The notes: generated by a model not told the origin, from the sequence alone. Positions 15,654 to 60,158 are shown, counted from the stretch's first letter. The stretch: DNA of 64,000 nucleotides from Methanosuratincola petrocarbonis (GCA_030522375.1 CP130488.1:576569-640568), one strand, 5' to 3'. Numbers and translations: made by a program.

Positions 15654-18119
15654 ATGATTAATGTGGTATTGATGCAGCGCAAGGTACTCCTGGTCGCGAT
15701 TCTGCTGTTGCTCTATCTCAACAGCATTGCCCTGCCTGTGGGCTCAGGGCTTTATGAATCTTCTATTGAGTCGCATATAGTGATAGGGAACGCCTCTGTC
15801 GTCGTCTTTGGAGATAACGGTGCTGCCTCGACAGAGACTTCCAATTCAGGGGATTTCTCAATAATTGATGGGCTGGCAGCAGGCACATATGACGTAGAGG
15901 TCTCGGCGCCCGGGTACATCAGCACTTACCTAAGCGGGGTGAATATATACGCTGGGTACCTGAAGGACCTCGGCGTGATCAACCTGAGCCCATCTGCACG
16001 AATCGAGGGGATGGTCGTCGGGCCGAATGACGAACCCATATCCAACATATCTTTGCGCCTTGTGGACGAAGGGAGCGGTTCGGTTGTGGCCGCCACCCGA
16101 TCTTCCGACTCTGGGGCATTCACCTTCGATTCGAACGTTAGGAGTGGCAATTATTCAATAATCGGGTACATAGATCCTTACTTCCCTGCCTCAGGCTTTG
16201 GGTACATGACCGGATCTGTCAGCGGCATCGCTGCGGCTGAGGGGCAAACTACATCAGGGGTCCTTATCCGCCTCAACGCATCGGGCATAATTGCTGGCAC
16301 GGTCAAGGATGAAAGCGGATCGCCTGTGGCTGGGGTGACGTTGAGGGCTTTCAGCATCGACGGGCAATCCAGGTTCGCTTTCGCAAAGGCCGACAGCCTT
16401 GGGCGGTTCAACATATCAACAAACCTACCCAGCGGCAGGTACAACCTGACTATATACGATGTAACCGGTTTTGTCTTCGATCCGTTCTCGGACTCCGCCA
16501 CTGTGAATTTGACTGCAGGATCTACATCGACCGTTAACTTCGTACTCAAGCGCTCTGGGATCATCTCGGGTAGGATCGTTTATTCGGACAATTCTCCGGC
16601 TGGATCAATACTCGTCTATGCCTTCAGCAGCGACAACAGGTACTTCGGTTATGCCTACTCAAATTCAGACGGCACTTACTCGATAAGCACAGGGCTCGGT
16701 ACCGGAAACTATACAGTCATTGCCAACAACGAATTCTCAAAATCCAAGACTGTGCTCGTAACGGCAGCTCATGAGACAAAGAATATTGACTTCAAGCTCT
16801 CCACGATTGGCGCTTCAAAAGTAATAGTCTCAGGGAGGGTGCTCGACTCCATGAACAGGCCCGTATCTTCAGCCATGGTATTCACCCCTTCGGACTACAC
16901 GTCGAGCTCGGATGATGGGAGCTATACAATCGAGATTGCCCTGCCCGCTGGTCAAAGTTCCATTACTGTGCCACTGACGGCATCGAAAAGGGGGTACTAT
17001 GACGGCGAGATCAATGTCACTGCCGTTGCTGGTCAAGGGGAAGTTCGGGCAGACATAACCTTGGTGGAGATGCCGAAGGGTTCCATTGCTGGAAAAGTTG
17101 TCTTCGGCCCCCCAAAGGAGAACACAGCGCTCACCATAGGTTCTGAGTATGCAAACGTCATGGTAGACCAAGAGTTCACTGTTTTCGGTTCGTCCCCGAC
17201 TTCAGGAGACGGCACAGTGGTGTATTTTATGTCCAAGAACGGTACGGGTTTCATGTACGCGGGGAACTCATCAATGACTGACGGCAGGTTCGCATTCAGC
17301 TTCGTCCCAGATTCCCCTGGCATGATGCGGATAAGGGCATACTGGTCAGGCGACAATCAATACAACCCCGTCGAGTCAAACACATTATCCATTGAGGCGT
17401 TCCCCCCTTCCTCGAAGACCCCTGTGGAGATAGCGATGTCCTCGACGGCTGCCAGCGTCCCCCCCGGATCAAGGATAAAGTTAACCGGAACCGCCCCCCC
17501 GATGAAAGATGGGGTGTTGCGACTATATGGGTCGGTGAACGGCTCGGGCTTCAATCAAATCGCCAACCTTACCCTGATCGAGGGCACCTTCTTCCACACA
17601 GTGGTGCTCAATGAGGGTGGAGTCTACTCCTTCTACGCAGTCTGGCCGGGCGATGCCAGCCGCTTCGCCAACAAATCAGGGATTGTCACTGTTACGGCGG
17701 CTCCAGGTGTGAAGGTCACCCCTACAGTTATGCTAAATTCATCCAAGACAACGGTCACGCTCTCAGAGAATGTGACCTCCGTTCCTGTTGCCATCTACGG
17801 CAGGATTTACCCGCCGGTTGCCGAGACCCAGGTTATAATCACCGTCACCGATCCCGCAAACGTGAAGACGAATATGACCGTGAGCACGAACGACTCTGAG
17901 TTCAGCCTACAGCTGATCTTGAACAAGCGCGGGACCTGGTCAGTGGTAGCCGGCATACCTGAGGGGCAGATATACGCCCCGTCCGCCTCTTCGCCCCTGG
18001 CGATCACGGCTGAATATTCTGGGGGTGCTGACAATACGATGATTTACATCATCGGGGTTGGGGTCGTCATCTTGGCGCTCGCGGTTGTCCTCTTCATCGT
18101 ATTCTCCAAGGGCAAGTGA
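15654..18119 (+). CDS. Large cell-surface protein with repeated carboxypeptidase-regulatory-like (Ig-like) domains and a C-terminal TM anchor
   Basis: 821 aa. Signal peptide (MQRKVLLVAILLLLYLNSIA; probable true start at 15672). Multiple G..Y.V repeats of the CarboxypepD_reg type. C-terminal IYIIGVGVVILALAVVLFIVFSKGK anchor. Confidence 0.75.
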   Translation: MINVVLMQRKVLLVAILLLLYLNSIALPVGSGLYESSIESHIVIGNASVVVFGDNGAASTETSNSGDFSIIDGLAAGTYDVEVSAPGYISTYLSGVNIYAGYLKDLGVINLSPSARIEGMVVGPNDEPISNISLRLVDEGSGSVVAATRSSDSGAFTFDSNVRSGNYSIIGYIDPYFPASGFGYMTGSVSGIAAAEGQTTSGVLIRLNASGIIAGTVKDESGSPVAGVTLRAFSIDGQSRFAFAKADSLGRFNISTNLPSGRYNLTIYDVTGFVFDPFSDSATVNLTAGSTSTVNFVLKRSGIISGRIVYSDNSPAGSILVYAFSSDNRYFGYAYSNSDGTYSISTGLGTGNYTVIANNEFSKSKTVLVTAAHETKNIDFKLSTIGASKVIVSGRVLDSMNRPVSSAMVFTPSDYTSSSDDGSYTIEIALPAGQSSITVPLTASKRGYYDGEINVTAVAGQGEVRADITLVEMPKGSIAGKVVFGPPKENTALTIGSEYANVMVDQEFTVFGSSPTSGDGTVVYFMSKNGTGFMYAGNSSMTDGRFAFSFVPDSPGMMRIRAYWSGDNQYNPVESNTLSIEAFPPSSKTPVEIAMSSTAASVPPGSRIKLTGTAPPMKDGVLRLYGSVNGSGFNQIANLTLIEGTFFHTVVLNEGGVYSFYAVWPGDASRFANKSGIVTVTAAPGVKVTPTVMLNSSKTTVTLSENVTSVPVAIYGRIYPPVAETQVIITVTDPANVKTNMTVSTNDSEFSLQLILNKRGTWSVVAGIPEGQIYAPSASSPLAITAEYSGGADNTMIYIIGVGVVILALAVVLFIVFSKGK

Positions 18120-34542: not shown

Positions 34543-34878
34543 GTGGATGATCGCCCACAGATATTCTCCTAATTCCCTTAGATTTCTCTGAGAACATGGT
34601 ATTTGAGAAGCTCTGGATTTCGGGACTCTAAACAAGCCTGTTTGTTGTTGGAATTACTTCTTTGAAGTCAAGATTGCACAGAAGAGACGACAAATCTACT
34701 TCGTCTTTACTAATGATTTTTCCCTCTGAGAATGTTTTGTCCGCATCGAAAAACAGCTTCCAGCCTTTGCTTTGCCCTTGATCATTTAACCGTCTTGGCA
34801 TTGTGCCTTTTATAAGCTTATCGATCTCAGAAAGTAGCGTCTCATATTGGAAAATTTTAAGATTCTATATGATCCAAC

Positions 34879-35373
34879 ATGAAGAAGAGGGGCATTGGGG
34901 ATATGCCCAAAAAGAGCCTCACAATAGCAGCAGTAGCGATTATTGTAACTTTAGCATTGGTGTCTGTTGCCTTATGGTTCACTCAGGAGCTTAAACAAAG
35001 GGAAGCTATCAACAACGTCCAAATAGCCTTGGACGGGGTGAGCGTCGAGAGTATAGGATTAACAGGTGCGACGCTCAACATTAGATTAAGGGTGTACAAC
35101 CCTGGCACGATTACTGCAACTTTGGATCATGCAGATTACGACATGTACGGCAACAATGTTCATCTCGGAAACGGCACAATCTCTCAAAGAGTAGACATTC
35201 CGCCAGGTGGGACTAGGGCGGTTTCGACAGATTTCTACCTTTCGTATGCAGGGGTCGGGAATGTCCTTTGGAATGCCATCCGGGAAGGGAAAGTGACCTG
35301 GCGCGTAAGAGGCACCGCCTACTTTGATGCCCTTTTAGGCACTATAAACATCCCATTCGACCTCACTCTTTGA
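34879..35373 (+). CDS. LEA14-like / WHy (water-stress and hypersensitive response) domain protein with N-terminal TM anchor
   Basis: 164 aa. TM helix (LTIAAVAIIVTLALVSVALWF) then an LEA type-2-like beta-sandwich (ATLNIRLRVYNPG...ADYDMYGNNVHLG). Confidence 0.6.
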   Translation: MKKRGIGDMPKKSLTIAAVAIIVTLALVSVALWFTQELKQREAINNVQIALDGVSVESIGLTGATLNIRLRVYNPGTITATLDHADYDMYGNNVHLGNGTISQRVDIPPGGTRAVSTDFYLSYAGVGNVLWNAIREGKVTWRVRGTAYFDALLGTINIPFDLTL

Positions 35374-35507
35374 AGCTGCCCTTAGCCACGCCCTCGCTTT
35401 AGCGACCTTCGACAAGAAGCTCAAGAGAATAGCGATAGAAAAGGGTTGGGATTCGTTCCAGAAAGGCGTTACGATTGGCTTGTCAACCCTCAAAAACCCT
35501 CTTTATT

Positions 35508-35900
35508 TAACGGTGGGCTCTTCGCCTTTTCATCAGCAGAAAAATGGCTACTGCAATGATCAATATTACTAATACAAGTATCGCGGCCACTGTCCCTGGA
35601 ATCCATTGCTGGTCCTGCGGCTGGACCTCTTATACCGATAAGAAAACCGCCTGACTCTTGGCCCCCTCATGATCGCTGTCGCCCTCCCAGGAGGCGGTCA
35701 CTCCCCAGTTGCCCGGCAGATCAGGTGCAATAGCGAACTCGTAGCGCCCATGCCCGTCAGCTGCCGTGCTTACGGTCATGTTGCTCCTATCGGGCTTGGC
35801 GAAAACCAGCTTTATTGTCGCCCCTGGCATCGAGATGATTGATCCTGAGACATTAATGACGTCCTTAAAAGCCGCTGCAGGATTGGAAACTGAGCGCGAT
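35508..35900 (-). pseudogene. Frameshifted C-terminal remnant of a CarboxypepD_reg-type surface protein with a TM tail
   Basis: Minus-strand frames give ...KDVINVSGSIISMPGATIKLVFAKPDRSNMTVSTAADGHGRYEFAIAPDLPGNWGVTASWEG... and, after a frame switch, ...QPQDQQWIPGTVAAILVLVILIIAVAIFLLMKRRRAHR*. This resembles the C-terminus of the 15654-18119 surface protein. No N-terminal part is present. Confidence 0.45.
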
Positions 35901-36018
35901 TCCGCCAGGTTCCCTCGCGTTTGACTTAATATTTAGGTAATTTTACTAAAAAGGATAAGTAATCATTTAAAAAGGCTTAAATATAAAAATTAAAGAAAAA
36001 AATCCGTAGATAATAAAA

Positions 36019-36543
36019 ATGGTATCCAATAGTCTAAATTGGACAAACTGGTTAAAATTTAAAAATATTTGGGTAAGGAATGGAAGTAAATATTTCTTCC
36101 AATCTAAGGAAAATCTGCTCATTCCTGAAGATCCGGGTGTCTACCAAGTCAGGTGCATACAAAAAAACGATAAGCCGATTCAAATACAAAGGGCGAATGG
36201 TGTCGATACGGAGGGCATCCTCTACATAGGCAGCTCTAGTGATCTTATGGAAAGAATAAGGACTTTTTGGAGAGGGGTTAACGAGAATGTGCCTCCAAAT
36301 CTATTGCAAGCTTCTATTTCAAGCGCCAACATGTCCCAGATTTACAACCTTTTGAAAGTCCCTCATTCAGGTGCCAATACCTACGCGATTTTCCAGTTTG
36401 CTGGGGTTTTCCCTCAGGATTCTTTAGAAGTGCAGTGGGCTCAAACATCTACATACAAATCCGATGAAACAACTCTGTTATACGCATATATGGCAAAGTT
36501 TCTTGACAAGCCTCCTTTGAATCTTTCGATCAAGCGGTGGTGA
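36019..36543 (+). CDS. GIY-YIG nuclease-like protein
   Basis: PGVYQVRC...(20 aa)...ILYIGSSSDLMERIRTF matches GIY-x10-20-YIG plus the downstream R/E motif. 174 aa, AT-rich, with a strong AT-rich promoter-like region upstream. Confidence 0.5.
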   Translation: MVSNSLNWTNWLKFKNIWVRNGSKYFFQSKENLLIPEDPGVYQVRCIQKNDKPIQIQRANGVDTEGILYIGSSSDLMERIRTFWRGVNENVPPNLLQASISSANMSQIYNLLKVPHSGANTYAIFQFAGVFPQDSLEVQWAQTSTYKSDETTLLYAYMAKFLDKPPLNLSIKRW

Positions 36544-37546
36544 TTTTAGGGAAGAGCAAAGAGTGCCATTATTCGATCTATTGCTCCAGACATCTAGATG
36601 AACTGCATAAGGGGGGCGCAAAAAATCATGCGCGCCTAAGCGCCAAGATCGATTATCGATCTTCCCCCCATTTTCTTTGCATTGACCGTCAAATCAGCCC
36701 ACCAGAAAGCTCTCAAAACCATGAGTTTCGTAAAACGGTTTCAGTACTTCCTTCAGAACCAGGTTCTAGGTTGGATCCGCAAGGATGCTGTCCGTCCCCT
36801 GTTCAGCAACGGCGATCGCCGCCCATCCATTACCATGTAAAGTCACAGGCGCCATGGGATCTTACACTTCTGATACATGCGACGTCGTCCTTCCTTCGTA
36901 TTTGTTCAATCACCAGCCGATTGAGCCTGTGATCCTTCTTGCAAGAACCATGTCCGATACCTCTGGGCATGGGATGCAGAATGATAAATCCTTGCTGCGA
37001 GGACAGAATTCCAGCTCCACCCTGGATGCGCACAATTATGCATCTAGGATCGACTCACCAAAGGTGGCTCTGATAAAAAATGGATCTCACTGAAGTGATG
37101 ATCGAACAAGATGCAGGCATTTCAAGGGAAGCATGCTATGAGATCAGGAGACTGGACTGACTTCTTTTTGGAGCGAGGAGCTCTTCAACGGGGGACAAGT
37201 GCAAGGAGCGGCGCGTTTTCTGGCTGGGACTCGAGGTCCACTGGGGGCAAGGCCCACGGGAAGCGCGCCGGACCGGAAGGGGACGGGGGTGCCGAGGTTT
37301 GAGCTGGAGGGAGTGCGAGGGTGTCCTGGAGCTCCTGTTCCTGAGGATGCGCGGGTGCGGGTCGAAGGAAGAGTGCCGGGAGGCGGTGGAGGAGGTCCTG
37401 GCGCTCGTGAAGGAAAGGAAGCTCGAGAGGTTAAAAGAGCGGTTTGGGACGATGGGGTAGATGTTTTTAAAGCAGTGCTTAATGAATTCTATACTTGGCA
37501 AATAAGAACTAAATTTTTTATATAACAAATTTTCATACTTTGCTGC

Positions 37547-38002
37547 ATGGACACTGGTGATGAAAAACTGTTCTATTTTGCATACGGATCTAACATGGAT
37601 CCAGAACAAATGAAAGAAAGACAGGCAAAGTTTTTCTCGCGGAAAGGGGCCGTTCTAAGAGGATGGCAGCTCGTTTTTAACGTCGAATCGAAAACATGGA
37701 AATGCGGTGTTGCGAATATTGTCGAAAAAGAGGCCGCAAAGGTCGAAGGTGTGCTTTATGAGATCACAAAAAACAGTCTTGACGAATTAGATCGTTATGA
37801 AGGGTTTCCTAGAAAATATCAACGGAAATTGCTATCGGTCGAAAGTGAAGGCAAAGAATACAAAGCAGAAGTCTACATTTCAAAAGAAAATAAAGACGGG
37901 CTGAAGCCCTCAAAGAGATACTTGAAACAACTTCTGAAAGGGCAAGACGTTCTTTCCAAAGAGTACGTCGAGATGCTGAGGAAAGTGGAAACCCAGGACT
38001 AG
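37547..38002 (+). CDS. Gamma-glutamyl cyclotransferase (GGCT/AIG2-like) family protein
   Basis: FAYGSNM motif (YGS-N-hydrophobic) near the N-terminus and a catalytic Glu context (EGVLYEI). 151 aa. A TTTTATATA box lies about 30 nt upstream. Confidence 0.7.
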   Translation: MDTGDEKLFYFAYGSNMDPEQMKERQAKFFSRKGAVLRGWQLVFNVESKTWKCGVANIVEKEAAKVEGVLYEITKNSLDELDRYEGFPRKYQRKLLSVESEGKEYKAEVYISKENKDGLKPSKRYLKQLLKGQDVLSKEYVEMLRKVETQD

Positions 38003-38138
38003 ACAAAAAACCGGCAGTGTTGTTAAATCATGCTCTGGTCCTGATCCTGCGGAACCCCAGCAACTTGGAATTTTTTAATTTATAATTGATTAACTTTAAA
38101 TTAGCTACAATATATAGTAATTAAAGGATGGTGAAGAC

Positions 38139-38309
38139 ATGACAAAGTGTCCATATTGCGGCCATGATGGAGCAGACAAAGTGCTTAAATCGTGGCGATT
38201 TCGTTTCTACGATGTCAGGCGGATGGAATGTGAGAAGTGCGGTAAGAAATTTAACCACTATAAGGGCACCTCTGGAGGGAAAATTTCAGAGTTCTTTATC
38301 AAGATGTGA
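38139..38309 (+). CDS. Small Cys4 zinc-ribbon protein (56 aa)
   Basis: MTKCPYCGHDG...(24 aa)...CEKCGKKF gives two CxxC pairs. A GGTGA SD-like motif lies upstream. Below the ORF-track cutoff. Confidence 0.4.
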   Translation: MTKCPYCGHDGADKVLKSWRFRFYDVRRMECEKCGKKFNHYKGTSGGKISEFFIKM

Positions 38310-38586
38310 GGGGGGCTCAACGGAAGCTCGTGAGCCTCATGTTGATTCTGATTTTATCCCCAGCGCGCCGGAAATGGGGAAAAATCCAGTTTTCCCTATC
38401 CTGGTATTGGAGTGAGGTCTCTTACCGATGAGAGCATCAAAAGCAAGTTCCCTTTGTTCAACAAACGCAACTCCTCAATCACGTCCTCTGAAGTCTTAAT
38501 TCTTAATCGTAATTTTTTAGTATTAGAAGGCTTATAGAAATGCTATCACTCACTGTTAGAAGACGACTGTTTCGCGGTGTCTTTAT

Positions 38587-41286
38587 ATGAAAAATGTGTG
38601 GGAAGTTTGCGATTTTAGTGACGATATTAAGTTCGGGAGGTTTGATCCGAGCAGGTTTGCTGTTGAGCTTCATGCTGTTCTTGATGGAACGGCTGATCCT
38701 GTATATATAGATTCTAAACTTTTCCTTTCGAATACCTATCCGACATCGAACATGGCTTTCATATTGAAAGAAGCTTTGAAAAGGCTAAGTTCTAAGGGCA
38801 GTCAGCCAGTTTTCATTTTGGATACGGAGTTCGGAGGAGGAAAAACTCATACACTTCTCTTATTGTATCATGTATTTAGCAATAGAAGCATAGGCACAGA
38901 GTTCATTAGGGATTTGGGTATTGACAAGGAAATTGATGTTCTGGAAGTTCCAGAGGTAAGATTGGTGGCTATAGACTGTAGAAGCGTGAAGAGAAATACT
39001 CTTTGGGGCGAGTTAGCTGATGTTTTGGGGCATTATAAAGATTTTGAGGCTGAGGATTCTGCAAGGCAGCCTGTGCAGGATATCAGTAAATTTAAGTCTT
39101 TGCTTAAGGAGCCCACTCTGATTTTGATTGATGAGTTGCCAGATTATTTGCTTAGGGCGGCGGCTCGTGAGGTCGGAAAGGTAACACTCGCGGATCTAAC
39201 TTTGTCTTTCATAATTCACTTGATTAGCGCGGTTGCAACGAGTAAGAATTCCATGCTAATTATAACTTTGACCGGGAAGCAAAGCCTGTATGAGAGGTTT
39301 GTGAAGAGGTTTAAGGGGGAGTATCAGAGGATTCTGGACGGATTTTTGATTGAGGAGCTACATGACATAACTATTGAAGCGTCTTCTAGACAGACGAAGT
39401 TCATTGTTCCAGTAGAGAAGGACGAAGTTTCAAAGGTTATCCGAAAGCGTCTAGTGAAGAGCATAAAGGATGTGGATGAAGTCAGAAAAATAGTACGTGC
39501 ATATTGCGATTATTATCAGAATAAGGGAATATTGATAAGTCCTGGTTATGAAGAAAGGCTTGAAAATGCTTATCCGTTTCATCCGTTCCTCATTGACGTT
39601 CTTTATGAAAGAGTCTCAACCATCGAGGAGTTTAACAAGACCAGGGGCACACTTCGGTTATTGGCGATGATTTTACACAGGATTTATAGGGATAAAGTTG
39701 AATGTAAATTGGTTTCTGCCGGCGACATTCCCCTTCATGACCCTGAGATAAAGGATGAGCTTACTTCCAAGCTGGGGAAGGGTGATATGAGGCCCGTTAT
39801 CGAGGCCGACTGCATAGGCAAGGCGAAGGTTATTGACGGAAAGAGGAAAATTAAATTGGCTGAAAATATCGCTCGAACCATCTACTTATACTCGCTTATA
39901 GGGGCTGTGAAAATTTCGGGAATCAGGACGGGGGATGTGAAGCTTGCTGTTTGTCAGCCTGGAATTGACCCTGCTATTGTTGACGACATACTTAGAGAGA
40001 TGGACGAGGAATTTTGGTATTTGAAGCATGAAGCAGGCGAGTATTATTTTGATAAGGAGCCAAACATAAACAAGATAATTCACGATTACAATGGCGAGGT
40101 GAGGCCCGAAGAGGCTAGGGGAATTATCAAGAGCACTTTGGAGTCCATGCTTCCGAACGGTTCAGGTGTTAAATGCATAGTTTGGGATAAAGACAAGGTT
40201 ACCGACGAGCCTGACAGTCTTAAAATCTTTGCTCTTGATTACATGGATGTTGTCCGCTCTGATGAATTAGGCGTTCTCGAAAGCATTCTTGAAAGCAGAT
40301 CTGAGGGCGGGATTAGAAGTTATAGGAATACTGTAGTTATGCTCCTGCCTTATAAAGAGGGCGTGAATGCGTTAATGGAAAGTGCGGTATTGATCCGCGC
40401 TATTGAAAAGGCGAAAATGGACGAACGCATCAAGCTTGACAGGGATAGATTAAAGAAAATTAACGAGAAGCTTGAAGCCAGTAAGGGCCATATGGTTACG
40501 GACTGTCAAAACGTTTACTCAAAGGTGGTTTATCCTAGGATCGGCGATGGGAAACTGCAGATAGACGATTTGGGGTATGAAGAGAAAAAGAGCTTAACAG
40601 ATATGGTTTTGTCCCATCTTAGGCGTAGGGGAAAACTTGTTGACAACTTATCGGCATCAGCGATAGAGGATCTCTTGAAGGGGGATGGAGCTGGAAAAGA
40701 CAAAGTTCAGATTAAGGATATTTACACGCTTTATCGGACAGATAGACGGAAACCTTTCATACTTTGCGGCGCCGTTGTTCTTGACGCTGTTAGGAACGGT
40801 GTTAGGGAGGGCCTGTTCGGATATGCGAGGGAGCTTGTTGAGAAAGACGGTAAATACGTGGCGAAGCCTAGAGAAGAAGTATTCAGCGTGGACTGGGAAG
40901 GATGGATTATAAAACCAGATCTCGTTTACGTTGAAGAGAAAAAGGAGCGGGAAAAAGAAAAAGAAGAGGAAAGGAAACCTTGGCCTCCGCCAGAGCCCCT
41001 TTATAATTATCGTTTTGAATGTAAAAGTTTGAATGAAGCCTTGGAGCACCTGAATAAGCTTAAAGTTTTGTCTGTGGGTCGGGCCTTGGATATGCGCATT
41101 TCAATCAGTCTTATAAACGAAAGCGAAGACAAGGTCAGCATTGAAAGTAAATTGAAGAAGCTCGGGGAGCTTGAGAGTCTGCTTAATGTACTTAGGTCTA
41201 AGGGCTATTCTGGAAACGGCGAAATCACAGTAAGCTCTAAAGAGGATCTAAGCGAAGATTTGAAAAGGTATGGTTTGAGGGGTTAG
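38587..41286 (+). CDS. DUF499-type P-loop ATPase (BrxC/PglY-like, COG1483-like)
   Basis: 899 aa. Walker A TEFGGGKTHTLLLLYH and Walker B LILIDELPDY. Long alpha-helical C-terminal region. First gene of a co-directional cassette with the MTase and helicase. Confidence 0.8.
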   Translation: MKNVWEVCDFSDDIKFGRFDPSRFAVELHAVLDGTADPVYIDSKLFLSNTYPTSNMAFILKEALKRLSSKGSQPVFILDTEFGGGKTHTLLLLYHVFSNRSIGTEFIRDLGIDKEIDVLEVPEVRLVAIDCRSVKRNTLWGELADVLGHYKDFEAEDSARQPVQDISKFKSLLKEPTLILIDELPDYLLRAAAREVGKVTLADLTLSFIIHLISAVATSKNSMLIITLTGKQSLYERFVKRFKGEYQRILDGFLIEELHDITIEASSRQTKFIVPVEKDEVSKVIRKRLVKSIKDVDEVRKIVRAYCDYYQNKGILISPGYEERLENAYPFHPFLIDVLYERVSTIEEFNKTRGTLRLLAMILHRIYRDKVECKLVSAGDIPLHDPEIKDELTSKLGKGDMRPVIEADCIGKAKVIDGKRKIKLAENIARTIYLYSLIGAVKISGIRTGDVKLAVCQPGIDPAIVDDILREMDEEFWYLKHEAGEYYFDKEPNINKIIHDYNGEVRPEEARGIIKSTLESMLPNGSGVKCIVWDKDKVTDEPDSLKIFALDYMDVVRSDELGVLESILESRSEGGIRSYRNTVVMLLPYKEGVNALMESAVLIRAIEKAKMDERIKLDRDRLKKINEKLEASKGHMVTDCQNVYSKVVYPRIGDGKLQIDDLGYEEKKSLTDMVLSHLRRRGKLVDNLSASAIEDLLKGDGAGKDKVQIKDIYTLYRTDRRKPFILCGAVVLDAVRNGVREGLFGYARELVEKDGKYVAKPREEVFSVDWEGWIIKPDLVYVEEKKEREKEKEEERKPWPPPEPLYNYRFECKSLNEALEHLNKLKVLSVGRALDMRISISLINESEDKVSIESKLKKLGELESLLNVLRSKGYSGNGEITVSSKEDLSEDLKRYGLRG

Positions 41287-41290
41287 CAGT

Positions 41291-41644
41291 TTGAGGTCTG
41301 TGAAATACCGCCTTGAAGAAAGCGGGAGTGGAAAAACCGCGTGTCTGCAGGCGGTAATAGAGGATAGGTTTGGACGTAAAAAAGTCAGTCTTTCTAGGCT
41401 TAGAGGGTGGCGAAAAGAAATAGCGGAGGAGCATTTAAAGCTTGAAAGCGGAAAATGGGACGATGATGCCGCAAAAACTCTTGTGAGTTTAGAAGCCTTA
41501 AAATGCGCAAGAAGCCTGGATGAAGCCTTAAAGTTTTTGCAGGCTGTAAATAGCTTAAGCCAGCTTGATCTTCATTTCTGGGCAACTAAATTCTTGAACG
41601 ATGATAAAAAACCCAGAAGGGCTTGGAGGATGCTTTATGGATAA
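41291..41644 (+). CDS. Small hypothetical protein between the ATPase and methyltransferase
   Basis: 117 aa. Starts 5 nt after the ATPase stop and its stop overlaps the MTase start, so it is translationally coupled. No recognisable family. Confidence 0.45.
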   Translation: MRSVKYRLEESGSGKTACLQAVIEDRFGRKKVSLSRLRGWRKEIAEEHLKLESGKWDDDAAKTLVSLEALKCARSLDEALKFLQAVNSLSQLDLHFWATKFLNDDKKPRRAWRMLYG

Positions 41645-44231
41645 AACATTGATGGACAACAAGAGCGTCGAACACCTAAAACTGTTTGCGGATGTTAGCG
41701 AGGAGGCTAGGAAGGAAAAACTTGGCAGGCCGCCTATAAGTGAAATGATTTATTGGTGGACGAGAAAGCCGCTTATTGTTGGAAGGACTGTAACACTTCT
41801 TTCGTTGCTTCCTGAAAACACCAATCTGGCTGATGTTAAGCCTTTGCTGGGGCTCGGTAGGGAAAAAAGAGCTTTCAATTATGCGCCAAAGCTTGAGTCT
41901 ATAAAGAAGAATGCGGGCAAGCCACTAGACTCGTTAACCGTGTTTGATCCTTTTGCTGGAGCTGGCAACCTTCTATTTGAGGCGGCCCGTTTGGGGCCTA
42001 ACTGCACAGCTATGGACTATAATCCTGTTGCACACATTATATTGAAGGCTACGTTGGAATACCCGGCTGTTTATGGCGAAAGGCTTGCAGAGGACGTTGA
42101 GCGATATGGCAAATTGGTAATAGAGCGGGCGAAGAAAGAGGTCGGCAAGTTCTACTATAGAAAGAACGGTCGCCAAACCTTGCATTATTTGTGGTGTTGG
42201 TGTATAAAATGCCCTTATTGCGGTCAAAGAGTGCCCCTAACGAATCAAATGTGGCTTGATAAAAAAAGGAAAACAGGCTATAGGATTAAGCCTACGAAAG
42301 ACAACGACTTTGAGATAGAAGTTGGAATGGTAAGTGATAAAGAAGGCTCGAAGTACACCCAGAAAGACGGGGAAGCCACCTGCATAAAATGCAAAAACGC
42401 AATAAGTTATCAGCACATGACCAAAGACATTGCTGAGAGAAGAGACAAACAAATGATAGCAGTCGTAGTCAAGGCACAGAAAGGAAAAGACTATGAACCG
42501 TTCACGATGGAGGATATAGAATTATTCAATAAAGCAACGGCAGAGCTGAAGGACCAATGGGCAAATCTAATAAGCCAAGACCTAATCCCGCAAGAGGAAC
42601 TCAAAGAATCAGAATTATTCCGTGTAACTAATTATGGCTTGAAAAAGTGGTTTGAGTTTTTCAACGAGAGACAATTGCTTTTGATGTCCACGCTTTTGCG
42701 CATCATCCGCGATGTCTGCTCGGAAATAGTGGACAAAGAATACAGAAAGGCTATAGCCACTTACTTGGGGCTGATGATGTGCAAGCATGTTGATCACAAT
42801 TGTATTGGTGTGAGATGGGACCCAACAAAACAGATAACTTGTGATTCCCTATCTATGAGAAGTCCCCGTATTATCTACAATTTCGCTGAAACCAACCCGT
42901 TTGAGAAGACTAGCGGTTCATTTCACAGTGTATTACGGAATGTTGTTGATGCGGTAAGTTTTGCGGCGTTGAATAAGACGCCTGCTAAGGTTTTGCGCGG
43001 TTCTGCAGTAAATATGGCTGTATCAAACAAATTTGACTTAGTTTTAACTGACCCGCCATATATGGAGGATGTCGCTTATGCGGAGTTGAGCGAATTTTTC
43101 TATGTGTGGCTCACTAGAGTTCTCAGAGACTATTATCCTGAGTTGCCATCAACAGTTCCAAGCGATGAAGATCTTGTTTTAAGCAAGGGTAGGTTCGGCG
43201 GAAACGAAAAACTTGCTTTAGAGTTTTATAAGAAAGGCATGACTTTAGCCTTCCAAAACATCTACAAGTCCCTTAAAGATGACGGGCTTTTGGTGGTCTT
43301 CTTTGCCCATTCAAGTACCGAGGCCTGGGATCTTCTCTTAGAGGTTTTAAGGGGATCCAGGTTTAGGGTGGTTTCCAGCTATGCCGTGCACACGGAAAGC
43401 ACAGAAAATCCTTTGGCAAGAGGCAAGACTTCCTTCATGAGTTCCATAGTGCTTTCATGCAGGAAGATACTTGAGGATAAAGAGGCTTATTTTGAAAGCC
43501 TCATGCCCAGAGTTGAGGAAGAGATAAAAGAGTTAATTGAAGGTTTAAGCGACGAGGATCTGCTCAGCCTTCCCATAACCGACCTCCTTATAATGGCCTA
43601 CGGTAAAGTGCTTGAAGAATTAACACAATACTCCCAAATCAAAAGCTACAGGGCTGATTTCAAGGCTAAATTTGAAGATTTGATAGGCGAAGCCAGAGAC
43701 TTCATCTTCAGAGAAGTCGTAAGAAAGCTAACTGGAAGATCGCTTAACATTTTAGGACCCGAAGCCTCATTCGCACTTATAACAAAAATCTTTTACAGAA
43801 GCTCAATCCCTAGTGATGAAGCCCTAAAAGTTGTTAGAGCGTATGGGCTGACCGTCGACGCCCTAGTGAAAAAGGGCTACGCCAAAAAAATCAGCGGCGG
43901 AATAGAAATAACGCCCTTCACAGAAGTCCCCTTAGACATCAGCCCCGAAGAAGTGGAAAGAAACAACCTCTACCAACAACTCCTCTACCTATTAAAAACA
44001 GCCAACGAGAAAGGGGCGCCGGCCATCAAACAGCTGCTGTCATCCTACGGCAACTTCGGGCTTCAAGAACTCCAATACATCATAAACCTACTGACAAAAC
44101 ATTATAGACTGCTCATTAACAAAGGCGAAGAACTTAGAGACAGCGAAAAAATCGAACTCCAAGTTTTAGATTCTATATCAGATGTTATAGGCCAGCCAAT
44201 GCAAAGAAGGACCCTCGACAGCTTCACTTAA
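41637..44231 (+). CDS. DUF1156-type N6-adenine/N4-cytosine DNA methyltransferase with an internal zinc ribbon (COG1743-like, PglX-like role)
   Basis: SAM motif I VFDPFAGAGNL and catalytic motif IV LVLTDPPYMEDVAY (DPPY). A CxxC...CxxC zinc ribbon (CIKCPYCGQ...CIKCKNA) lies between them. Long C-terminal domain. The ORF track starts at 41601; the in-frame ATG at 41637 overlaps the upstream stop. Confidence 0.85.
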   Translation: MDKTLMDNKSVEHLKLFADVSEEARKEKLGRPPISEMIYWWTRKPLIVGRTVTLLSLLPENTNLADVKPLLGLGREKRAFNYAPKLESIKKNAGKPLDSLTVFDPFAGAGNLLFEAARLGPNCTAMDYNPVAHIILKATLEYPAVYGERLAEDVERYGKLVIERAKKEVGKFYYRKNGRQTLHYLWCWCIKCPYCGQRVPLTNQMWLDKKRKTGYRIKPTKDNDFEIEVGMVSDKEGSKYTQKDGEATCIKCKNAISYQHMTKDIAERRDKQMIAVVVKAQKGKDYEPFTMEDIELFNKATAELKDQWANLISQDLIPQEELKESELFRVTNYGLKKWFEFFNERQLLLMSTLLRIIRDVCSEIVDKEYRKAIATYLGLMMCKHVDHNCIGVRWDPTKQITCDSLSMRSPRIIYNFAETNPFEKTSGSFHSVLRNVVDAVSFAALNKTPAKVLRGSAVNMAVSNKFDLVLTDPPYMEDVAYAELSEFFYVWLTRVLRDYYPELPSTVPSDEDLVLSKGRFGGNEKLALEFYKKGMTLAFQNIYKSLKDDGLLVVFFAHSSTEAWDLLLEVLRGSRFRVVSSYAVHTESTENPLARGKTSFMSSIVLSCRKILEDKEAYFESLMPRVEEEIKELIEGLSDEDLLSLPITDLLIMAYGKVLEELTQYSQIKSYRADFKAKFEDLIGEARDFIFREVVRKLTGRSLNILGPEASFALITKIFYRSSIPSDEALKVVRAYGLTVDALVKKGYAKKISGGIEITPFTEVPLDISPEEVERNNLYQQLLYLLKTANEKGAPAIKQLLSSYGNFGLQELQYIINLLTKHYRLLINKGEELRDSEKIELQVLDSISDVIGQPMQRRTLDSFT

Positions 44232-44243
44232 AGGGAAAGCGCT

Positions 44244-47200
44244 ATGATTCAGATAGGCTCAAGGGTTAAAATAAGAGGAAAAAACGAAACTGGAGCAGTT
44301 CTAGAGCTTAGGGGAAACTTCGCTCGAGTTTTAACGCTCACAGCCGACACGTGGCATCCAATCGAAGAATTAGAAGAAGACCTCTCTTTAATAGACCGCA
44401 TAATTACTGTAAATCTGGACGATGGATTAGACTTCATCCTGTCAATGGACGCCTACAGGCTGCTCTCAGAATACAAATTCAACCCCTACGTTCTAGCCTC
44501 ATCAACAAAAATCAGGATCTTTCCCCACCAGATAGACGAAGTCACAAGAATCCTTGACATGCCAAGGATGATGATCGCTGACGAGGTCGGTCTAGGCAAA
44601 ACAATAACCGCTGCGTTGGTCGCAAATGAACTCAAAGCCAGAGGGTTAGCAAACAAGCTACTATTTGTTGTGCCAAAGGCTCTGCTCTACAAGTGGCGCG
44701 ATGAATTAAACAACAGATTTGAAATGACTGCAGAAATCCTAGACTCCACCTATGTAAAAATACACGGGCCCCCTCTAGGCAAAAGGGAGTTCTGCTACAT
44801 CTCATCTATGGACTATCTAAAACAGAGCCATGTTATAAAAATGATTGAAGACGCAGAATTCGACATAACCGTAATCGACGAAGCCCACAAACTAGCGCTA
44901 AATACTGACAGACTAAAACTGGGCGAATGCCTAGCTCCAAGAACTAATCACATGCTTTTCCTGACGGCGACGCCCCACAACGGCGATAATGAGGACTATC
45001 TTAATAGAATCAAACTTTTAGACCCCTACATAACGGATGTGCAATCCGCCTCTCACATTCTAATTAGGAACCTAAAAGAGGATGTAGTAGACCTTGAAGG
45101 GAAAGAAGTCTTCCCTCCTAGGCAAAGCAAAACCGTATCTATCCCCATAAGCGAGGAAGAAACAAAACTTCACAGAATGGTGGATGAATATATCTCAAGA
45201 CGTATAGACGAAGCCCGGGATCGACAGGAATACAACGCAATGAGGTTTTTAGGGGGCATAATTCGCAAAAGAGCGTCGTCATCCCTAAAAGCCCTCAAAC
45301 TGACATTGGAAAGAAGACTAACAAGGCTAGGACAGGCTGTGAACGCAGAACAGGCCATAAAAAGAATGAAGGAGGCTGAAGAAGAGTTCGACGAGGAACA
45401 ATATGAGGAAAGCGAACAAGAGGTCGTAGGGATTTCGGGCTACTCCATAGAAGAAGATCGCAAAGAACTTGCAGAGTTGTTAGCTGAACTTGAAAAGATC
45501 CATGAAGATTCTAAAATAAAACATTTGATGAGCTTCATAGATACGATAAAGAAAGGCGATAAAACGACAAAAATAGTGATTTTTAGCGAATATAGAGACA
45601 CCGTAGACTACCTTTTCGAAAACCTGGCCAACAAGTATAGACTCGCGAAAATATACGGAGTCATGAACGTCGATGAGCGACATAATGCTTTGGCCAATTT
45701 TAGGGATCCAAATGGTGCGGAAATAATGGTCTGTACTGACGCGGCTGGTGAGGGCATAGACATGCAATTCGCCAACATAATGATAAACTACGACCTTCCA
45801 TGGAACCCAAACAGGCTCGAGCAAAGAATGGGGAGGATACATAGAATAGGTCAGACAAGACCTGTATACTATTACAACTTTATATTGTCGGGCACTATTG
45901 ACGGATACATTTTAAGTAAACTGTTAGAAAAAATCGAAGCAATAAAAGAAGCCATAGGCGACAAAGTCTACGATGTCGTTGGAAAACTTCTTTCAGAGGA
46001 AGGCATTTCAAGCCTATACGAAGAATTTTTGAAAGTACCTAAGGAGCTTTGGGAGGCCAAAGTCAAGAGGGTTGACGATATAATTGAGGAACGCAGGCGA
46101 ATATTGAATGAAATCAACGCCCTCCTCTCTGGACACAGGCTTGATAGAAGCAAACTTGAAGAAATCAAAAAAGTAAGACTCGAAGCCGTCGAAAAAGGTG
46201 AAGTTAAACGCTTCATAGAGGTCTACCTGGGAACTAAAGGAGGGAAAATAGAGCCCGTAAGAGAAGAAGACGAAGTTTACAGGCTAATGCTTCCGGCAAA
46301 GCTTGCACACAATCTTAACTACGGAACATTGGTCGGCAGCTTTTCAAATACAGTTGCAGAACAGAAAAACTATCCATACCTAGCTCTAGGAAACAAATGC
46401 ATAATGAGTATGATTTTGGACGCTATGAAGCCATCCGTCTCAATCTTTAAGCACGAAACATTAAGCGGAATACTTTACATTTATCGCGTCATATTGAAAG
46501 ATGGAAAGGGACAAGAAAGAAACGGAAAAATAATAGTTCTTCATTACTCCGAGGGAAAAATAAGGGAAATAGATCCAAGGAGCATATGGGATCTCGAACC
46601 TGTCGTCGGGGAAGAGCCTGAAATAGACACTAAAAACATTATTGAAGGCAAAAATTCAGCGGATCAGGCTCTACTCAAAATCGTATCCGACCTCAAAAAT
46701 GAAACCTCAGCAAAAATCGAGGAAATAAAGAACAAAACAAGAGACATAATCATAGCGTACTACTCAAGAAGAGTTGAGGAAAGTCGCAGAAAGATCGAGG
46801 ATTACCAGAATAGACTACAAGAGAGCCCCCACTACTCCAAGCTAATAAATAAAGAAGAGAGCACAATAAACTCGCTAAAACTAGAACTTGACTCAAATCT
46901 AACAGAAATATCCTCAGTATTTAATATTTACACCCTCTACGAGCTTATAGGCACGGCCATAATCATAGGAAAGCCAGGCGCAGACATCAAGAAGAAAGTG
47001 GAAAACGCAGGAGTTCAGGCAGTCATAAAATACGAAATGGAAAGGGCCAAAACAGAAGAGGAAAGAAACAGAATCAGAGATGTCTCTGACCAATATAAGG
47101 GATACGATGTAGAATCTTTTGACAGAGTGATTGAAGTCAAATCCTTTAGCACAACAGGATCAGTAGAAATGACAAGCAATGAATGGGAAACGGCTAACAG

Positions 47201-47366
47201 AATTAAAGAAGCATACTGGCTTTACACCGTGGAAAACGCCTTAGACAATCCTATAGTTTACCCAATACAAAACCCAACAGTAAAATTCAAGGATCTAGTA
47301 GAAAAAATTCCCATAATAGACTATAGATATAGAATTGACAAATGGAAAACCGCATCAACAAAATAG
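44244..47366 (+). CDS. SNF2-family helicase with a C-terminal DUF3883-like PD-(D/E)xK nuclease-like domain
   Basis: Motif I DEVGLGKTITA, motif II DEAHKL, motif III LFLTATPHNG, motif V VCTDAAGEGIDMQ, motif VI RMGRIHRIGQTR. C-terminal GYDVESFDRVIEVKSF matches the DUF3883-like restriction-endonuclease fold. 1040 aa. Confidence 0.85.
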   Translation: MIQIGSRVKIRGKNETGAVLELRGNFARVLTLTADTWHPIEELEEDLSLIDRIITVNLDDGLDFILSMDAYRLLSEYKFNPYVLASSTKIRIFPHQIDEVTRILDMPRMMIADEVGLGKTITAALVANELKARGLANKLLFVVPKALLYKWRDELNNRFEMTAEILDSTYVKIHGPPLGKREFCYISSMDYLKQSHVIKMIEDAEFDITVIDEAHKLALNTDRLKLGECLAPRTNHMLFLTATPHNGDNEDYLNRIKLLDPYITDVQSASHILIRNLKEDVVDLEGKEVFPPRQSKTVSIPISEEETKLHRMVDEYISRRIDEARDRQEYNAMRFLGGIIRKRASSSLKALKLTLERRLTRLGQAVNAEQAIKRMKEAEEEFDEEQYEESEQEVVGISGYSIEEDRKELAELLAELEKIHEDSKIKHLMSFIDTIKKGDKTTKIVIFSEYRDTVDYLFENLANKYRLAKIYGVMNVDERHNALANFRDPNGAEIMVCTDAAGEGIDMQFANIMINYDLPWNPNRLEQRMGRIHRIGQTRPVYYYNFILSGTIDGYILSKLLEKIEAIKEAIGDKVYDVVGKLLSEEGISSLYEEFLKVPKELWEAKVKRVDDIIEERRRILNEINALLSGHRLDRSKLEEIKKVRLEAVEKGEVKRFIEVYLGTKGGKIEPVREEDEVYRLMLPAKLAHNLNYGTLVGSFSNTVAEQKNYPYLALGNKCIMSMILDAMKPSVSIFKHETLSGILYIYRVILKDGKGQERNGKIIVLHYSEGKIREIDPRSIWDLEPVVGEEPEIDTKNIIEGKNSADQALLKIVSDLKNETSAKIEEIKNKTRDIIIAYYSRRVEESRRKIEDYQNRLQESPHYSKLINKEESTINSLKLELDSNLTEISSVFNIYTLYELIGTAIIIGKPGADIKKKVENAGVQAVIKYEMERAKTEEERNRIRDVSDQYKGYDVESFDRVIEVKSFSTTGSVEMTSNEWETANRIKEAYWLYTVENALDNPIVYPIQNPTVKFKDLVEKIPIIDYRYRIDKWKTASTK

Positions 47367-47819
47367 CATCCGCAGAAATTAATAGCCACTAATAGTCGAT
47401 GATTTTAAAAATTCAATACCATCTCGACCTCCAGCTTCTCAGAAACTTTCCTTCACGAAACTTTTTGAAGCCAGGTCATAGGTGTAGCACATGCTCCGAC
47501 CCTCGCCGTAGCTGGTTATATTGAACGACGCCCCCCTGAGGAGGTTTGGTTCCGGACTAGCAAGGCGCAGTGTAAGCGCCCAGAGGCACTATGTGTAAAT
47601 TCGGATTCATGGGTGCACTTGCACTAAACATAGATTGTGATCCAGATCCTGCATTTTTTGCTGCAGATGGCCTTGAAAGTGATGGGATCTCGACTTCTTG
47701 ATTGGATCGAGAATATAAAGGAGATAGTCTCGGTCGTCACTAACATGGGTTGGCAGAAGGCGTGCCCACAGAATAGTAAATATATACCCAACAGCAATTA
47801 TTTGCAGAGGGTCGGTATA

Positions 47820-58614: not shown

Positions 58615-59182
58615 TTACGCGCCTCCTCTTCAGAGCCAGGACTACGAGATAGCCCATGACTGCCCCGGGGACGCTGCTCATGAGGAAAAAGATCGTGAAC
58701 AGCTGCCACTGGGCAGTTAGCCCGAGGAAGGGCTGCAATTGCGCTGCACCGATGGCTGGTGCGACAAAGAATGCGCTGATCAGTGCCCCGAGGGTCGTCC
58801 CCAAGGGTTCCGTAAGGCCGGCAGCTTCTTTCCGCACCAAATACTTGTAGGCTATGCCGACCACCAATGCGCCAGGAATCCCCCCTGGCAGGGCGAAAAA
58901 AGTCCCGGTCCCAATCCCTATCCTGATCATGCCGATCAGCCCTGCCACGACGCCCGCGTTCAGCGGTCCGAGCAAAATCCCCGCGACCACATTTATCATA
59001 TGCTGGAAGGGGAAGACTTTTGTCGGCCCCACGGGGAATGCGCCAGGAAAAACCGATAACGAAACGCCTAATGCGACAAGTATCGATGAAAGCACTAACC
59101 GGTACGTGGGCGTTTTCAAATGTATTATTTTTCTATTACTATAATTAGACCCATTCTCAATATTTTGCCTTTTTGACACCAA
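58601..59182 (-). CDS. thiW: ECF transporter S-component, ThiW-like (thiamine precursor)
   Basis: 5-6 TM protein with FPFQHMINVVAGILLGP, resembling the ThiW motif. Preceded by a TPP riboswitch. The true start is probably the TTG near 59119 (KTPTYRLVLSS...); the AT-rich 59120-59182 stretch is likely leader. Confidence 0.65.
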   Translation of the reverse strand: MVSKRQNIENGSNYSNRKIIHLKTPTYRLVLSSILVALGVSLSVFPGAFPVGPTKVFPFQHMINVVAGILLGPLNAGVVAGLIGMIRIGIGTGTFFALPGGIPGALVVGIAYKYLVRKEAAGLTEPLGTTLGALISAFFVAPAIGAAQLQPFLGLTAQWQLFTIFFLMSSVPGAVMGYLVVLALKRRRVIEGD

Positions 59183-59188
59183 ACTACA

Positions 59189-59276
59189 GATCCCTCCGCT
59201 GGCATTGCCCAGATCAGGTTCAAAGGGTCGGCGACGGTTCCAGTCACCCTCTCAGCCCCTTTCCAGGAGCTCCCCT
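59189..59276 (-). ncRNA. TPP (thiamine pyrophosphate, THI-element) riboswitch
   Basis: Minus-strand sequence GGGGCUGAGAGGGUGACUGGAACCGUCGCCGACCCUUUGAACCUGAUCUGGGCAAUGCCAGCGGAGGGAUC. It has the conserved CUGAGA and ACCUGAUCUGG-AAUGCCAGCG pyrophosphate-sensor elements. Sits directly 5' of the ThiW-like gene. Confidence 0.8.
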
Positions 59277-60158
59277 TTGCAATCCAAATTTCCCGTATGT
59301 TTATAAGTGTTCCTATTACCTGATTATAGGAATTGCGGGCAAATTTTATTTTAGTAGTAAATATTTTTTAAATATGAAAATTCATTTTTTTAATTTAGGA
59401 CCATTAACGAAATTATTTTAAGGTTTAAGAACACTTCACTTTAAAGGACATTTTTAAACTAGTTAGCGTCATGGCTTAATAAATCAACAAATATCAAAAT
59501 TTTATTCAAAAATAAAAAATCATCGATATTTAAAAAGATAATTCAAAGAAATTAATTAAAATTGGAAAATTGTGGTTCACCATCAGATTGCGCCTCCTGT
59601 GCGGAATCCAATATTTCCTGAATCCCAGAGAATTCAGGCTGCTGGGGCTTGGGAGATCGGCAGGGGTGAGCGAGAATCTGAACCGCTCTGAAGGCACTCC
59701 CCGGGGCCTGAGGCGCTCGAAAGAAAGCAGGACGGTGGTTTATCACCTGCGGCCGCCGTTTCTTATCATTTCCCAATCTCACCTAGAATGGGAAATGGTG
59801 CAAAGATGGGATCTGCAGAAATTTTTCCTTTTATTTTCCTATTATGGAAATATTGGGAAATAAAGAGTAGCCCCGTTGGTTTTTGAGGCTCTAGAGGCGG
59901 CCTGCAGGCAGCCCAAAAATTTTTATGAAAAATGAATTGCTAATTTTATGGAAAAATTGTATTAGTGGTAAAACTATTTTTTAGTTTGACTTTTTATTCC
60001 CCAAGACACTTCGTCGGCATCCTTGTAAATTAGTTTACTATGAACGCTAGAATCTAGATCCAAGTGAAAGAACTGTTGGTGTCAGATACCTTGAGATATT
60101 CGCTAAAAAACCATAAGTTATTATATGACAAAAACCACCATTAACACAGGCGAGTGCA

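Follow-up and report, generated by a model that had tools for sequence, protein, structure and literature searches.

Analysis of a 64,000-nucleotide (nt) stretch of the chromosome of the archaeon Candidatus Methanosuratincola petrocarbonis (Thermoproteota, class Methanosuratincolia; GCA_030522375.1 CP130488.1:576569-640568; referred to as the window and numbered from its first letter) uncovered a compact four-gene cassette encoding an ATPase, a small 117-amino-acid (aa) protein, a DNA methyltransferase and a helicase-nuclease. By its sequence the cassette is an Hma defence system, also named the Type-1 DUF499-centred BREX-related (BR) system, with one conserved gene more than that system has been described to contain. 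We favour, with a probability of roughly three in four, the reading that this is an intact, horizontally acquired Hma cassette predicted to act as an anti-virus/anti-plasmid module resembling restriction-modification (RM), and that the small protein is its integral fourth subunit. The cassette is intact and is a new archaeal member of a system that is already named, classified and partly validated, since Hma was named in 2021 and defence by HmaA has been shown in Halomonas. The novelty beyond the literature is the conserved small fourth gene, which is undescribed in the published main texts. An earlier note, made from the sequence alone, had put the locus forward as a new or poorly characterised BREX-like system; the system turned out to have a name, and novelty is left to the 117-aa open reading frame (ORF), which the note had listed as an unknown protein and treated as filler but which is real and is the sole element that the literature does not cover.

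Identity of the cassette

Hma (helicase, methylase, ATPase) is a candidate defence system introduced in the paper on PADLOC, which counted 1,638 loci from 26 phyla (Payne et al. 2021; PMC8565338). In January 2026, Rakesh and Krishnan (Nucleic Acids Research; PMC12839542) described DUF499-centred BR systems that mirror BrxC, PglXI and BrxHII of Type-3 bacteriophage exclusion (BREX) and divided them into three subtypes. As published there, Type-1 has only three genes, for an ATPase with a C-terminal RRM, a DUF1156 N6-methyltransferase and a Tudor-Snf2 helicase that ends in a PD-(D/E)xK nuclease, and also includes an inactive restriction endonuclease (REase) and an alpha+beta domain; Type-2 has an extra standalone DUF3780 gene and a helicase with an N-terminal HKD nuclease that has lost the Tudor domain; and Type-3 has an extra PglZ and an inactive STAND protein. 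The same authors propose the helicase's own nuclease as the stand-in for PglZ in BR systems.

The layout of the four co-directional genes was taken from the ORF listing of the window (Table 1), which agrees exactly with the coordinates and lengths first noted. On this listing the ATPase and small genes are 4 nt apart, the small and methylase genes overlap, and 12 nt separate the methylase from the helicase. The longest methylase ORF (41601-44231) gives the 876 aa originally proposed; the ORF holds, but its start is most likely the ATG at 41637, because the 8-nt overlap with the stop of the small ORF that results from this start is also present in related loci L001, L002, L004 and L046. A GGAGGA motif precedes this ATG.

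Table 1 Features of the cassette and of the island around it (window positions)
Feature	Position	Strand	Evidence
HmaC, DUF499 STAND/ORC-like AAA+ ATPase, 899 aa	38587..41286	+	Pfam, PADLOC, Walker motifs
Small basic protein, 117 aa, TTG start, fourth cassette gene	41291..41644	+	Family conservation; no Pfam family
HmaB, predicted DUF1156-type N6-adenine DNA methyltransferase, 864 aa from the probable ATG at 41637	41637..44231	+	Pfam, PADLOC, motifs
HmaA, Swi2/Snf2 translocase with C-terminal NOV_C nuclease, 1040 aa	44244..47366	+	Pfam, PADLOC, motifs
Low-GC island, ~13 kb	about 34600..47600	.	GC 0.41-0.46 vs 0.55-0.62 on both sides
AT-rich 5′ intergenic region, putative archaeal promoter region of the operon	38416..38586	+	

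The DUF499, DUF1156/N6_N4_Mtase, SNF2 plus Helicase_C and DUF3883 domains proposed in the earlier note were all recovered by profile hidden Markov models (HMMs) from Pfam, PADLOC and NCBIfam, and its Walker A/B, FxGxG, DPPY, Cys4 ribbon and PD-(D/E)xK motifs were all present in a motif scan. HmaC matches Pfam DUF499 (E = 8.4e-51) and PADLOC HmaC (9.7e-88 over residues 6-795), with Walker A GGGKT at residue 83 and Walker B LILIDE at 178. HmaB matches Pfam DUF1156 (5.1e-07, residues 30-73), N6_N4_Mtase and MethyltransfD12, as well as PADLOC HmaB (5.8e-75); between its motif I (FAGAG at 118) and motif IV (DPPY at 484) stand two CxxC pairs, at 201 and 261, that form a Cys4 zinc-ribbon target-recognition insert. 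HmaA contains the Pfam domains SNF2-rel_dom (1.4e-17), Helicase_C (1.2e-26) and, at residues 925-1006, NOV_C (PF13020, formerly DUF3883; 2e-15), and matches PADLOC HmaA at 1.8e-96. Its SNF2 motifs I, II, III and VI read GLGKT, DEAH, TAT and QRMGRIHRIGQ, its C-terminal PD-(D/E)xK nuclease motif comprises D955, E964-V-K966 and E980/E982, and the orthologue alignment delineates a conserved beta-rich module of ~45 aa at its N-terminus. In sequence searches the closest solved protein to HmaA was RapA (1.4e-38), and neither HmaC nor HmaB had a solved relative.

The catalytic motifs are invariant across 11-13 orthologous cassettes with identities down to ~30%: Walker A and B in 13 HmaC orthologues; motif I, both CxxC pairs and DPPY in 12 HmaB orthologues; and helicase GLGKT, DEAH and QR.GR.HR.GQ together with nuclease GYD...IEVK...T..EW in 11 HmaA orthologues. 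The PADLOC models for HmaA, HmaB and HmaC all match on the + strand within 8.8 kb, as the PADLOC definition of Hma specifies. The composition of Type-1 BR is likewise recovered, namely a DUF499 STAND/ORC-type AAA+ ATPase with intact Walker motifs, an N6-methyltransferase with N-terminal DUF1156 and a zinc-finger target-recognition insert after motif I, and a Swi2/Snf2 helicase with an additional C-terminal PD-(D/E)xK nuclease whose catalytic residues are conserved. The cassette departs from the three-gene composition of that type in having a conserved fourth gene 3′ of the ATPase.

The relationship to BREX that had been proposed is borne out by PADLOC matches of the methylase to PglXI (2.6e-12) and of the helicase to BrxHI/II (5.9e-98), and the 2026 paper (PMC12839542) independently concurs. 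These matches could also be read as the trace of a canonical Type-3 BREX or DISARM (defence island system associated with restriction-modification) locus that has decayed and lost PglZ, BrxA and BrxF or DrmA and DrmB: the helicase scores as well on BrxHI/II and on DrmD (3.6e-96) as on the HmaA model and reaches 360 bits on NCBIfam DISARM_DrmD. That score is below the cut-off of 610, however, and for the ATPase and methylase the Hma models are by far the better match. Searches of the ORFs of the island, the large ORFs of the window and the Pfam-annotated related loci turned up no PglZ, BrxA/B/F, DUF1998 or further component of BREX or DISARM, and the large ORFs outside the cassette encode housekeeping proteins (among them NrdD, a type IV pilus ATPase, DnaK, DnaJ and radical-SAM enzymes). 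The compact layout with tight or overlapping junctions also recurs in all relatives. Because PglZ, BrxA and BrxF, noted as missing at the outset, are absent from both the window and the related neighbourhoods, the cassette is not a fragment of canonical BREX, and degradation from BREX or DISARM is essentially excluded.

A conserved small gene follows the ATPase gene

The 117-aa ORF is a real gene. The exact sequence of its product is present in NCBI, where it is annotated as hypothetical and assigned to Ca. Methanosuratincola petrocarbonis, as is the exact sequence of the ATPase; a word-indexed protein search gave a single close relative of the small protein. An exhaustive HMMER search of 1.84 billion representative proteins returned 30 matches, of which ~28 are genuine and most are 113-127 aa long; matches P0146 and P0151 are repeat or low-complexity artefacts. 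The window protein had no match in Pfam, PADLOC, NCBIfam or PHROG, and a single-protein scan with it recovered one metagenome locus and zero viral loci.

A member of this family is encoded directly 3′ of DUF499 in the window and in 12 related archaeal loci from Thermoproteota (Caldarchaeum, Thaumarchaeota), Alkanophagales and metagenomes, covering at least two archaeal phyla. In every neighbourhood fetched for an ATPase homologue of 33-71% identity, the small gene stood behind DUF499, as an uncalled ORF in L007 and as a gene called too short in L008, and the same placement is seen in L045 and L046 (Alkanophagales archaeon). Across these loci its 5′ junction measures -20 to +7 nt and its 3′ junction -26 to -1 nt. 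In L033 and L034, which make up the most divergent branch, the methylase gene is on the opposite strand and the small gene is found after DUF499, directly before the helicase gene; the slot is thus kept after the methylase has moved, which ties the small gene to the ATPase and not to the methylase. The divergence of the small protein also tracks that of HmaC, with identities to the window proteins (HmaC/small, in %) of 71/62, 64/57, 53/50, 48/51, 42/41, 38/39, 36/37, 33/38, 34/31 and 34/32.

Structure prediction with AlphaFold2, using the family alignment, gave a confident model (predicted local distance difference test 94.7, predicted template modelling score 0.87; 74.6 for the former without the alignment) of three antiparallel strands (residues 3-10, 16-25 and 28-38) followed by five helices. 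The sequence carries the motifs GWR (39-41), EALKFL, HFW..KFL (95-102) and AWR..Y (111-116), with W40, R41, F96, W97, F101 and A111 near-invariant, and the family as a whole is basic (isoelectric point 8.0-10.5) and tryptophan-rich. Fold searches of the model against the PDB (Foldseek) and the viral BFVD returned nothing at E <= 0.001.

Several of the related loci contain further genes. L003 (ENA ERZ6863514, 1-12556) encodes tandem DUF499 systems, the first in the order helicase - DUF1156 - DUF499 with no small gene, and the second, ~1.8 kb downstream, in the window's order of DUF499 - small gene - DUF1156; their ATPases are ~30% and 53% identical, respectively, to that of the window. Directly upstream of the four-gene layout of L046 (GCA_003661185.1), a 149-aa EVE-domain gene (7949-8398), a modified-base reader, overlaps the DUF499 start by 4 nt, in agreement with earlier literature on EVE-associated DUF499 neighbourhoods. 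Two Candidatus Caldarchaeum metagenome-assembled genomes (L004, 5691-6155; L005, 1719-5343) encode DUF87/HerA-FtsK-type ATPases upstream of their cassettes, and L005 a ParB_N protein as well, in regions with many small ORFs that lack annotation; these genes may belong to another defence system or to a mobile-element module.

Proteins in the slot behind DUF499 in other cassettes

In haloarchaea the slot behind DUF499 is occupied by DUF7680 (PF24728), a family for which no mention was found in the literature searched; the supplementary text of the 2026 BR paper (PMC12839542) mentions neither DUF7680 nor the taxa found here. A DUF7680 gene lies directly 3′ of DUF499, wherever that flank is present, in 21 haloarchaeal genome loci and a Haloplanus plasmid locus, whose slot gene matches Pfam DUF7680 at 1e-37. 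It is followed by DUF1156 in most haloarchaeal loci, although some contigs are short and L012 (Haloarchaeobius baliensis, 5705-16715) is rearranged: there DUF499 - DUF7680 is not followed by DUF1156, and a second DUF499 gene on the opposite strand comes next, and then a helicase gene.

No Pfam family other than DUF7680 was matched by two or more of the small-family proteins (for DUF7680, 4 of 23 at E <= 0.03, best E 0.0021), and the DUF7680 matches all fall on the C-terminal part of the DUF7680 model. The best of them, at 18.7 bits, stays below the gathering threshold of 24, and the 117-aa protein of the window has no Pfam DUF7680 match. When 3,243 ORFs from all loci were searched with the small-family HMM, 21 of the 22 DUF7680 proteins ranked after the true members and before any unrelated ORF (E 0.13-2.1), and the top 15 non-family matches of an HMM of the helical half were all DUF7680 proteins. 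The helical motif G-E-I-H-F-W-A-S-K (E.HFWA.K) of the small family aligns with E-E-C-Y-Y-W-H-A-K of DUF7680. Against this link, a direct hhalign comparison of the two families was not significant (P = 0.014, probability 3%), the reverse search with the DUF7680 HMM gave no significant match to the small family, and the DUF7680 set counts as about one observation because its members are 60-90% identical to each other. Judging by the HMM ranking together with synteny, the small protein is probably a distant relative of DUF7680.

In Type-2 BR systems the slot gene between DUF499 and DUF1156 encodes DUF3780 (L009 and L036-L044). Homology of the small protein to DUF3780, suggested by a by-eye likeness of E.HFWA.KFL...AWR..Y to EERWWLY...GWRKALY, was rejected for want of sequence support. 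Compared by hhalign with a DUF3780 profile built from 10 sequences, the small family aligned over only 10 columns at P = 0.05, and the GWR that was paired was a different one; Pfam DUF3780 did not match the small protein even at E = 10, and HMMs of the helical half and of the C-terminal 33 residues of the small family retrieved zero DUF3780 proteins, with noise-level matches (E >= 16) from the N-terminal HMM. What is left of the likeness is the position of the gene and a published fold of a four-strand sheet and five helices (PMC12839542), set against three strands and five helices here. In the Type-2 system on a plasmid of Deinococcus sp. NW-56 (L043), DUF3780 is followed not directly by DUF1156 but by a prevent-host-death antitoxin gene (1039-1256), a case in which a BR system has a toxin-antitoxin gene inserted among its own genes.

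A more far-reaching proposal, which we hold tentatively and at slightly less than even odds, is that the small protein is an undescribed core subunit in an archaeal clade of Hma/BR systems and forms with DUF7680 of haloarchaea, and perhaps DUF3780 of bacteria, one ancient class of slot proteins whose genes always come immediately after DUF499 in ATPase - x - methylase - helicase cassettes. If true, the published split between Type-1 and Type-2 (three versus four genes, with Tudor and DUF3780 as alternative readers) would be incomplete, because a Type-1-style helicase with an N-terminal module and a C-terminal REase coexists here with a slot protein; biochemical reconstitution of these systems would then require the fourth partner.

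Proposed mechanism and its alternatives

Based on the motifs and on what is known of the family, HmaB would N6-methylate host DNA at a motif read by its zinc-ribbon insert. HmaC may be the sensor and scaffold, using ATP to put the complex together on DNA and to scan it. HmaA would translocate along invader DNA that lacks the mark and nick or cut it, an effector role taken from the Halomonas homologue and presumably placed under the control of methylation. The small protein would be an integral subunit of the archaeal clade, made in step with HmaC through translational coupling; it most likely binds HmaC and may act as an adaptor or a DNA-contacting accessory, providing contact with DNA or a link to the methylase and helicase. 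Such a role would parallel the ones that DUF3780 is proposed to have in Type-2 systems and DUF7680 in those of haloarchaea.

The only experimental work on this type of system comes from Halomonas meridiana, whose HmaA alone shields E. coli from phage T4, with fewer T4 plaques (Liu 2024; PMC11232893). According to that study, defence requires the Snf2 motifs and the NOV_C residues D1084, E1104, K1106 and E1121, the purified C-terminal domain nicks plasmid DNA with Mn2+, and protection is lost at a multiplicity of infection (MOI) of 10, which its authors read as a non-canonical abortive-infection (Abi) or dormancy effect and not as restriction gated by methylation. The residues that this HmaA needs have conserved equivalents in the HmaA of the window. 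The earlier note had described the trio as predicted only and its mechanism as undescribed; this stands for the roles of the trio but not for HmaA, whose defence and Mn2+-dependent NOV_C nickase activity are published (PMC11232893).

Several observations weigh against an RM-like module with the small protein as fourth subunit. The Halomonas Hma is bacterial, has the opposite gene order and is without the small gene, and because HmaA alone is sufficient against T4, with an effect read as Abi or dormancy, what HmaB and HmaC do and how self is told from non-self remain assumptions. Pfam searches of the sub-domains (Tudor, inactive REase, RRM and the methylase C-terminus) gave no useful match, which leaves the Type-1 sub-domains unconfirmed. 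None of ~120 HmaC homologues carries the small domain as a fusion. On a 6.3-kb contig without DUF499 (L035; Logan SRR27730028, 5020-6245), the small gene stands beside a divergently transcribed DUF1156 methylase gene, behind an unrelated 160-aa ORF, and a STIV_B116-like gene follows. Lastly, a gene inside an Hma operon is not automatically a subunit, since 62.7% of 1,485 Hma systems carry embedded unrelated genes, mostly in the same orientation and many of unknown function (bioRxiv 10.1101/2024.01.29.577857). The L035 branch of the small family is itself divergent and AT-rich, and its relatives P0140-P0145 have long low-complexity N-terminal extensions.

The frequency of embedded genes and the occurrence of the family in L035 without an adjacent DUF499 both speak for the main rival for the small gene, in which the 117-aa ORF is an embedded passenger (a mini-defence gene, an antitoxin-like modulator or a small regulator) and the working system is three-gene Hma. 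The published descriptions of Type-1 BR and Hma require three genes only, and canonical A-B-C cassettes (the 5′ system of L003, and L011) contain no member of the small family. Embedded genes in Hma are, however, diverse and swappable (434 families, 376 different cassettes; bioRxiv 10.1101/2024.01.29.577857), whereas the small family holds one fixed position in the window and its 12 related loci, over HmaC identities of 33-71% and at least two archaeal phyla. It diverges in step with HmaC, overlaps or abuts both neighbours, keeps its slot behind DUF499 after the methylase has moved, occurs in no other observed context except L035 and has no PADLOC, PHROG or NCBIfam match. The passenger reading is disfavoured on these grounds and seems to us distinctly unlikely.

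A second alternative concerns the mode of action: rather than methylation-gated restriction, HmaA could be largely a solo sensor-effector that causes dormancy or abortive infection, with HmaB, HmaC and the small protein in regulatory or separate epigenetic roles. The protection by HmaA alone and its failure at MOI 10 fit this view, and the isolated nuclease domain nicks supercoiled plasmid with no sequence specificity demonstrated (PMC11232893). Yet methylase, ATPase and helicase-nuclease are strictly co-conserved and all three keep intact catalytic motifs in every orthologous cassette, a pattern not easily reconciled with HmaA being the only component that matters. In architecture the cassette also parallels Type-3 BREX and the logic of restriction-modification, and HmaA alone had been tested in a heterologous host, against a phage with glucosyl-hydroxymethylcytosine. 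We consider a solo HmaA rather unlikely and retain the RM-like, four-subunit module as the preferred reading.

Genomic context

The cassette lies in the AT-rich island recognised in the earlier note, whose GC content contrasts with that of its surroundings (Table 1) over about 34.5-47.6 kb. The island is bordered by an LUD/4Fe-4S gene on one side and a PhoU-like/PHO4 phosphate-transport pair on the other, and its low GC content, 0.41-0.46 compared with about 0.58, amid housekeeping genes supports horizontal acquisition. The island was searched for signatures of mobile elements; it contains no tRNA, integrase or att-like repeats, and its flanking repeats do not exceed chance. Apart from the cassette, its ORFs had zero PADLOC matches, and the single PHROG match in the island is to a gamma-glutamyl cyclotransferase family (ORF 37547-38002). 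The 5′ part (34879-38415) encodes a LEA_2 protein, this gamma-glutamyl cyclotransferase (GGACT/AIG2-like, with its match to a phage 'moron' PHROG) and several family-less ORFs.

The intergenic region upstream of HmaC may contain the promoter of the operon; it has the T/A-rich stretches taattttttagtattag and cttatagaaa 45-75 nt upstream of the HmaC ATG. A scan for sigma-70 promoters and terminators was set aside, since that model is inapplicable to an archaeon. Elsewhere in the window, a second low-GC stretch (~58-61 kb, GC 0.47-0.50) includes a full-length thiamine pyrophosphate (TPP) riboswitch at 59173-59286 on the - strand (Rfam RF00059, 68.8 bits vs a gathering score of 54.3, E 2e-11).

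Significance and comparison with known systems

Hma/BR is among the most widespread defence systems, reported from 26 phyla and ~3,600 taxa. The finding as a whole is incremental, because the system already has a name and the cassette adds a new member, from an archaeon, to it; within the cassette, the small protein offers a concrete missing part for reconstituting the complex or solving its structure, the small gene blurs the published boundary between Type-1 and Type-2, and slot synteny provides the first functional context for Pfam DUF7680.

Of the known systems, DISARM (DrmA, DrmB/DUF1998, and DrmD or DrmMI/II) is cross-matched by the Snf2 core only, below the DISARM_DrmD cut-off, and neither DrmA nor DUF1998 is present as a partner. 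Type-3 BREX (BrxC/PglY, PglXI, BrxHII, PglZ, BrxA and BrxF) and Type-3 BR share with the window a homologous trio of ATPase, N6-methylase and Snf2 helicase, but the window is without PglZ, iSTAND/BrxF and BrxA, and its helicase carries its own nuclease.

Type-2 BR (DUF499 - DUF3780 - DUF1156 - PLD/HKD-helicase; NCBIfam anti-phage-associated set NF042962-4) has the same gene order, with a small standalone gene in the slot. It differs in its helicase, which has an N-terminal HKD/PLD nuclease, whereas the window helicase begins with a beta module and has its PD-(D/E)xK at the C-terminus. Pfam finds no PLD domain in the window helicase, and its matches to PADLOC PLD_Helicase and NCBIfam phospholipD_antiphage are restricted to the helicase core (residues ~327-573). 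The NCBIfam equivalog scores are likewise far below their cut-offs (220 bits vs 1200 for HmaC on DUF499_antiphage, and 218 vs 1000), and HmaC is ~23% identical to its Type-2 counterpart. The haloarchaeal DUF499 - DUF7680 - DUF1156 cassettes share the slot behind DUF499 and a weak but specific similarity in the helical half of its product, although DUF7680 is ~210 aa long compared with ~117 aa for the small protein; the Haloplanus locus (L010) differs further in that its helicase is longer and a gene of its own encodes an HsdR-N nuclease.

The closest likeness is to Hma/Type-1 BR, with which the window shares the DUF499 AAA+ ATPase, the DUF1156 N6-methyltransferase with its zinc-finger insert, the Swi2/Snf2-NOV_C helicase, the lack of PglZ and the setting in a low-GC island. 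From canonical Hma it differs in gene order, which is C-x-B-A rather than the A-B-C of the 5′ system of L003 and of L011, in an HmaC only ~30% identical to canonical-order homologues, and in the conserved ~117-aa gene that follows the ATPase.

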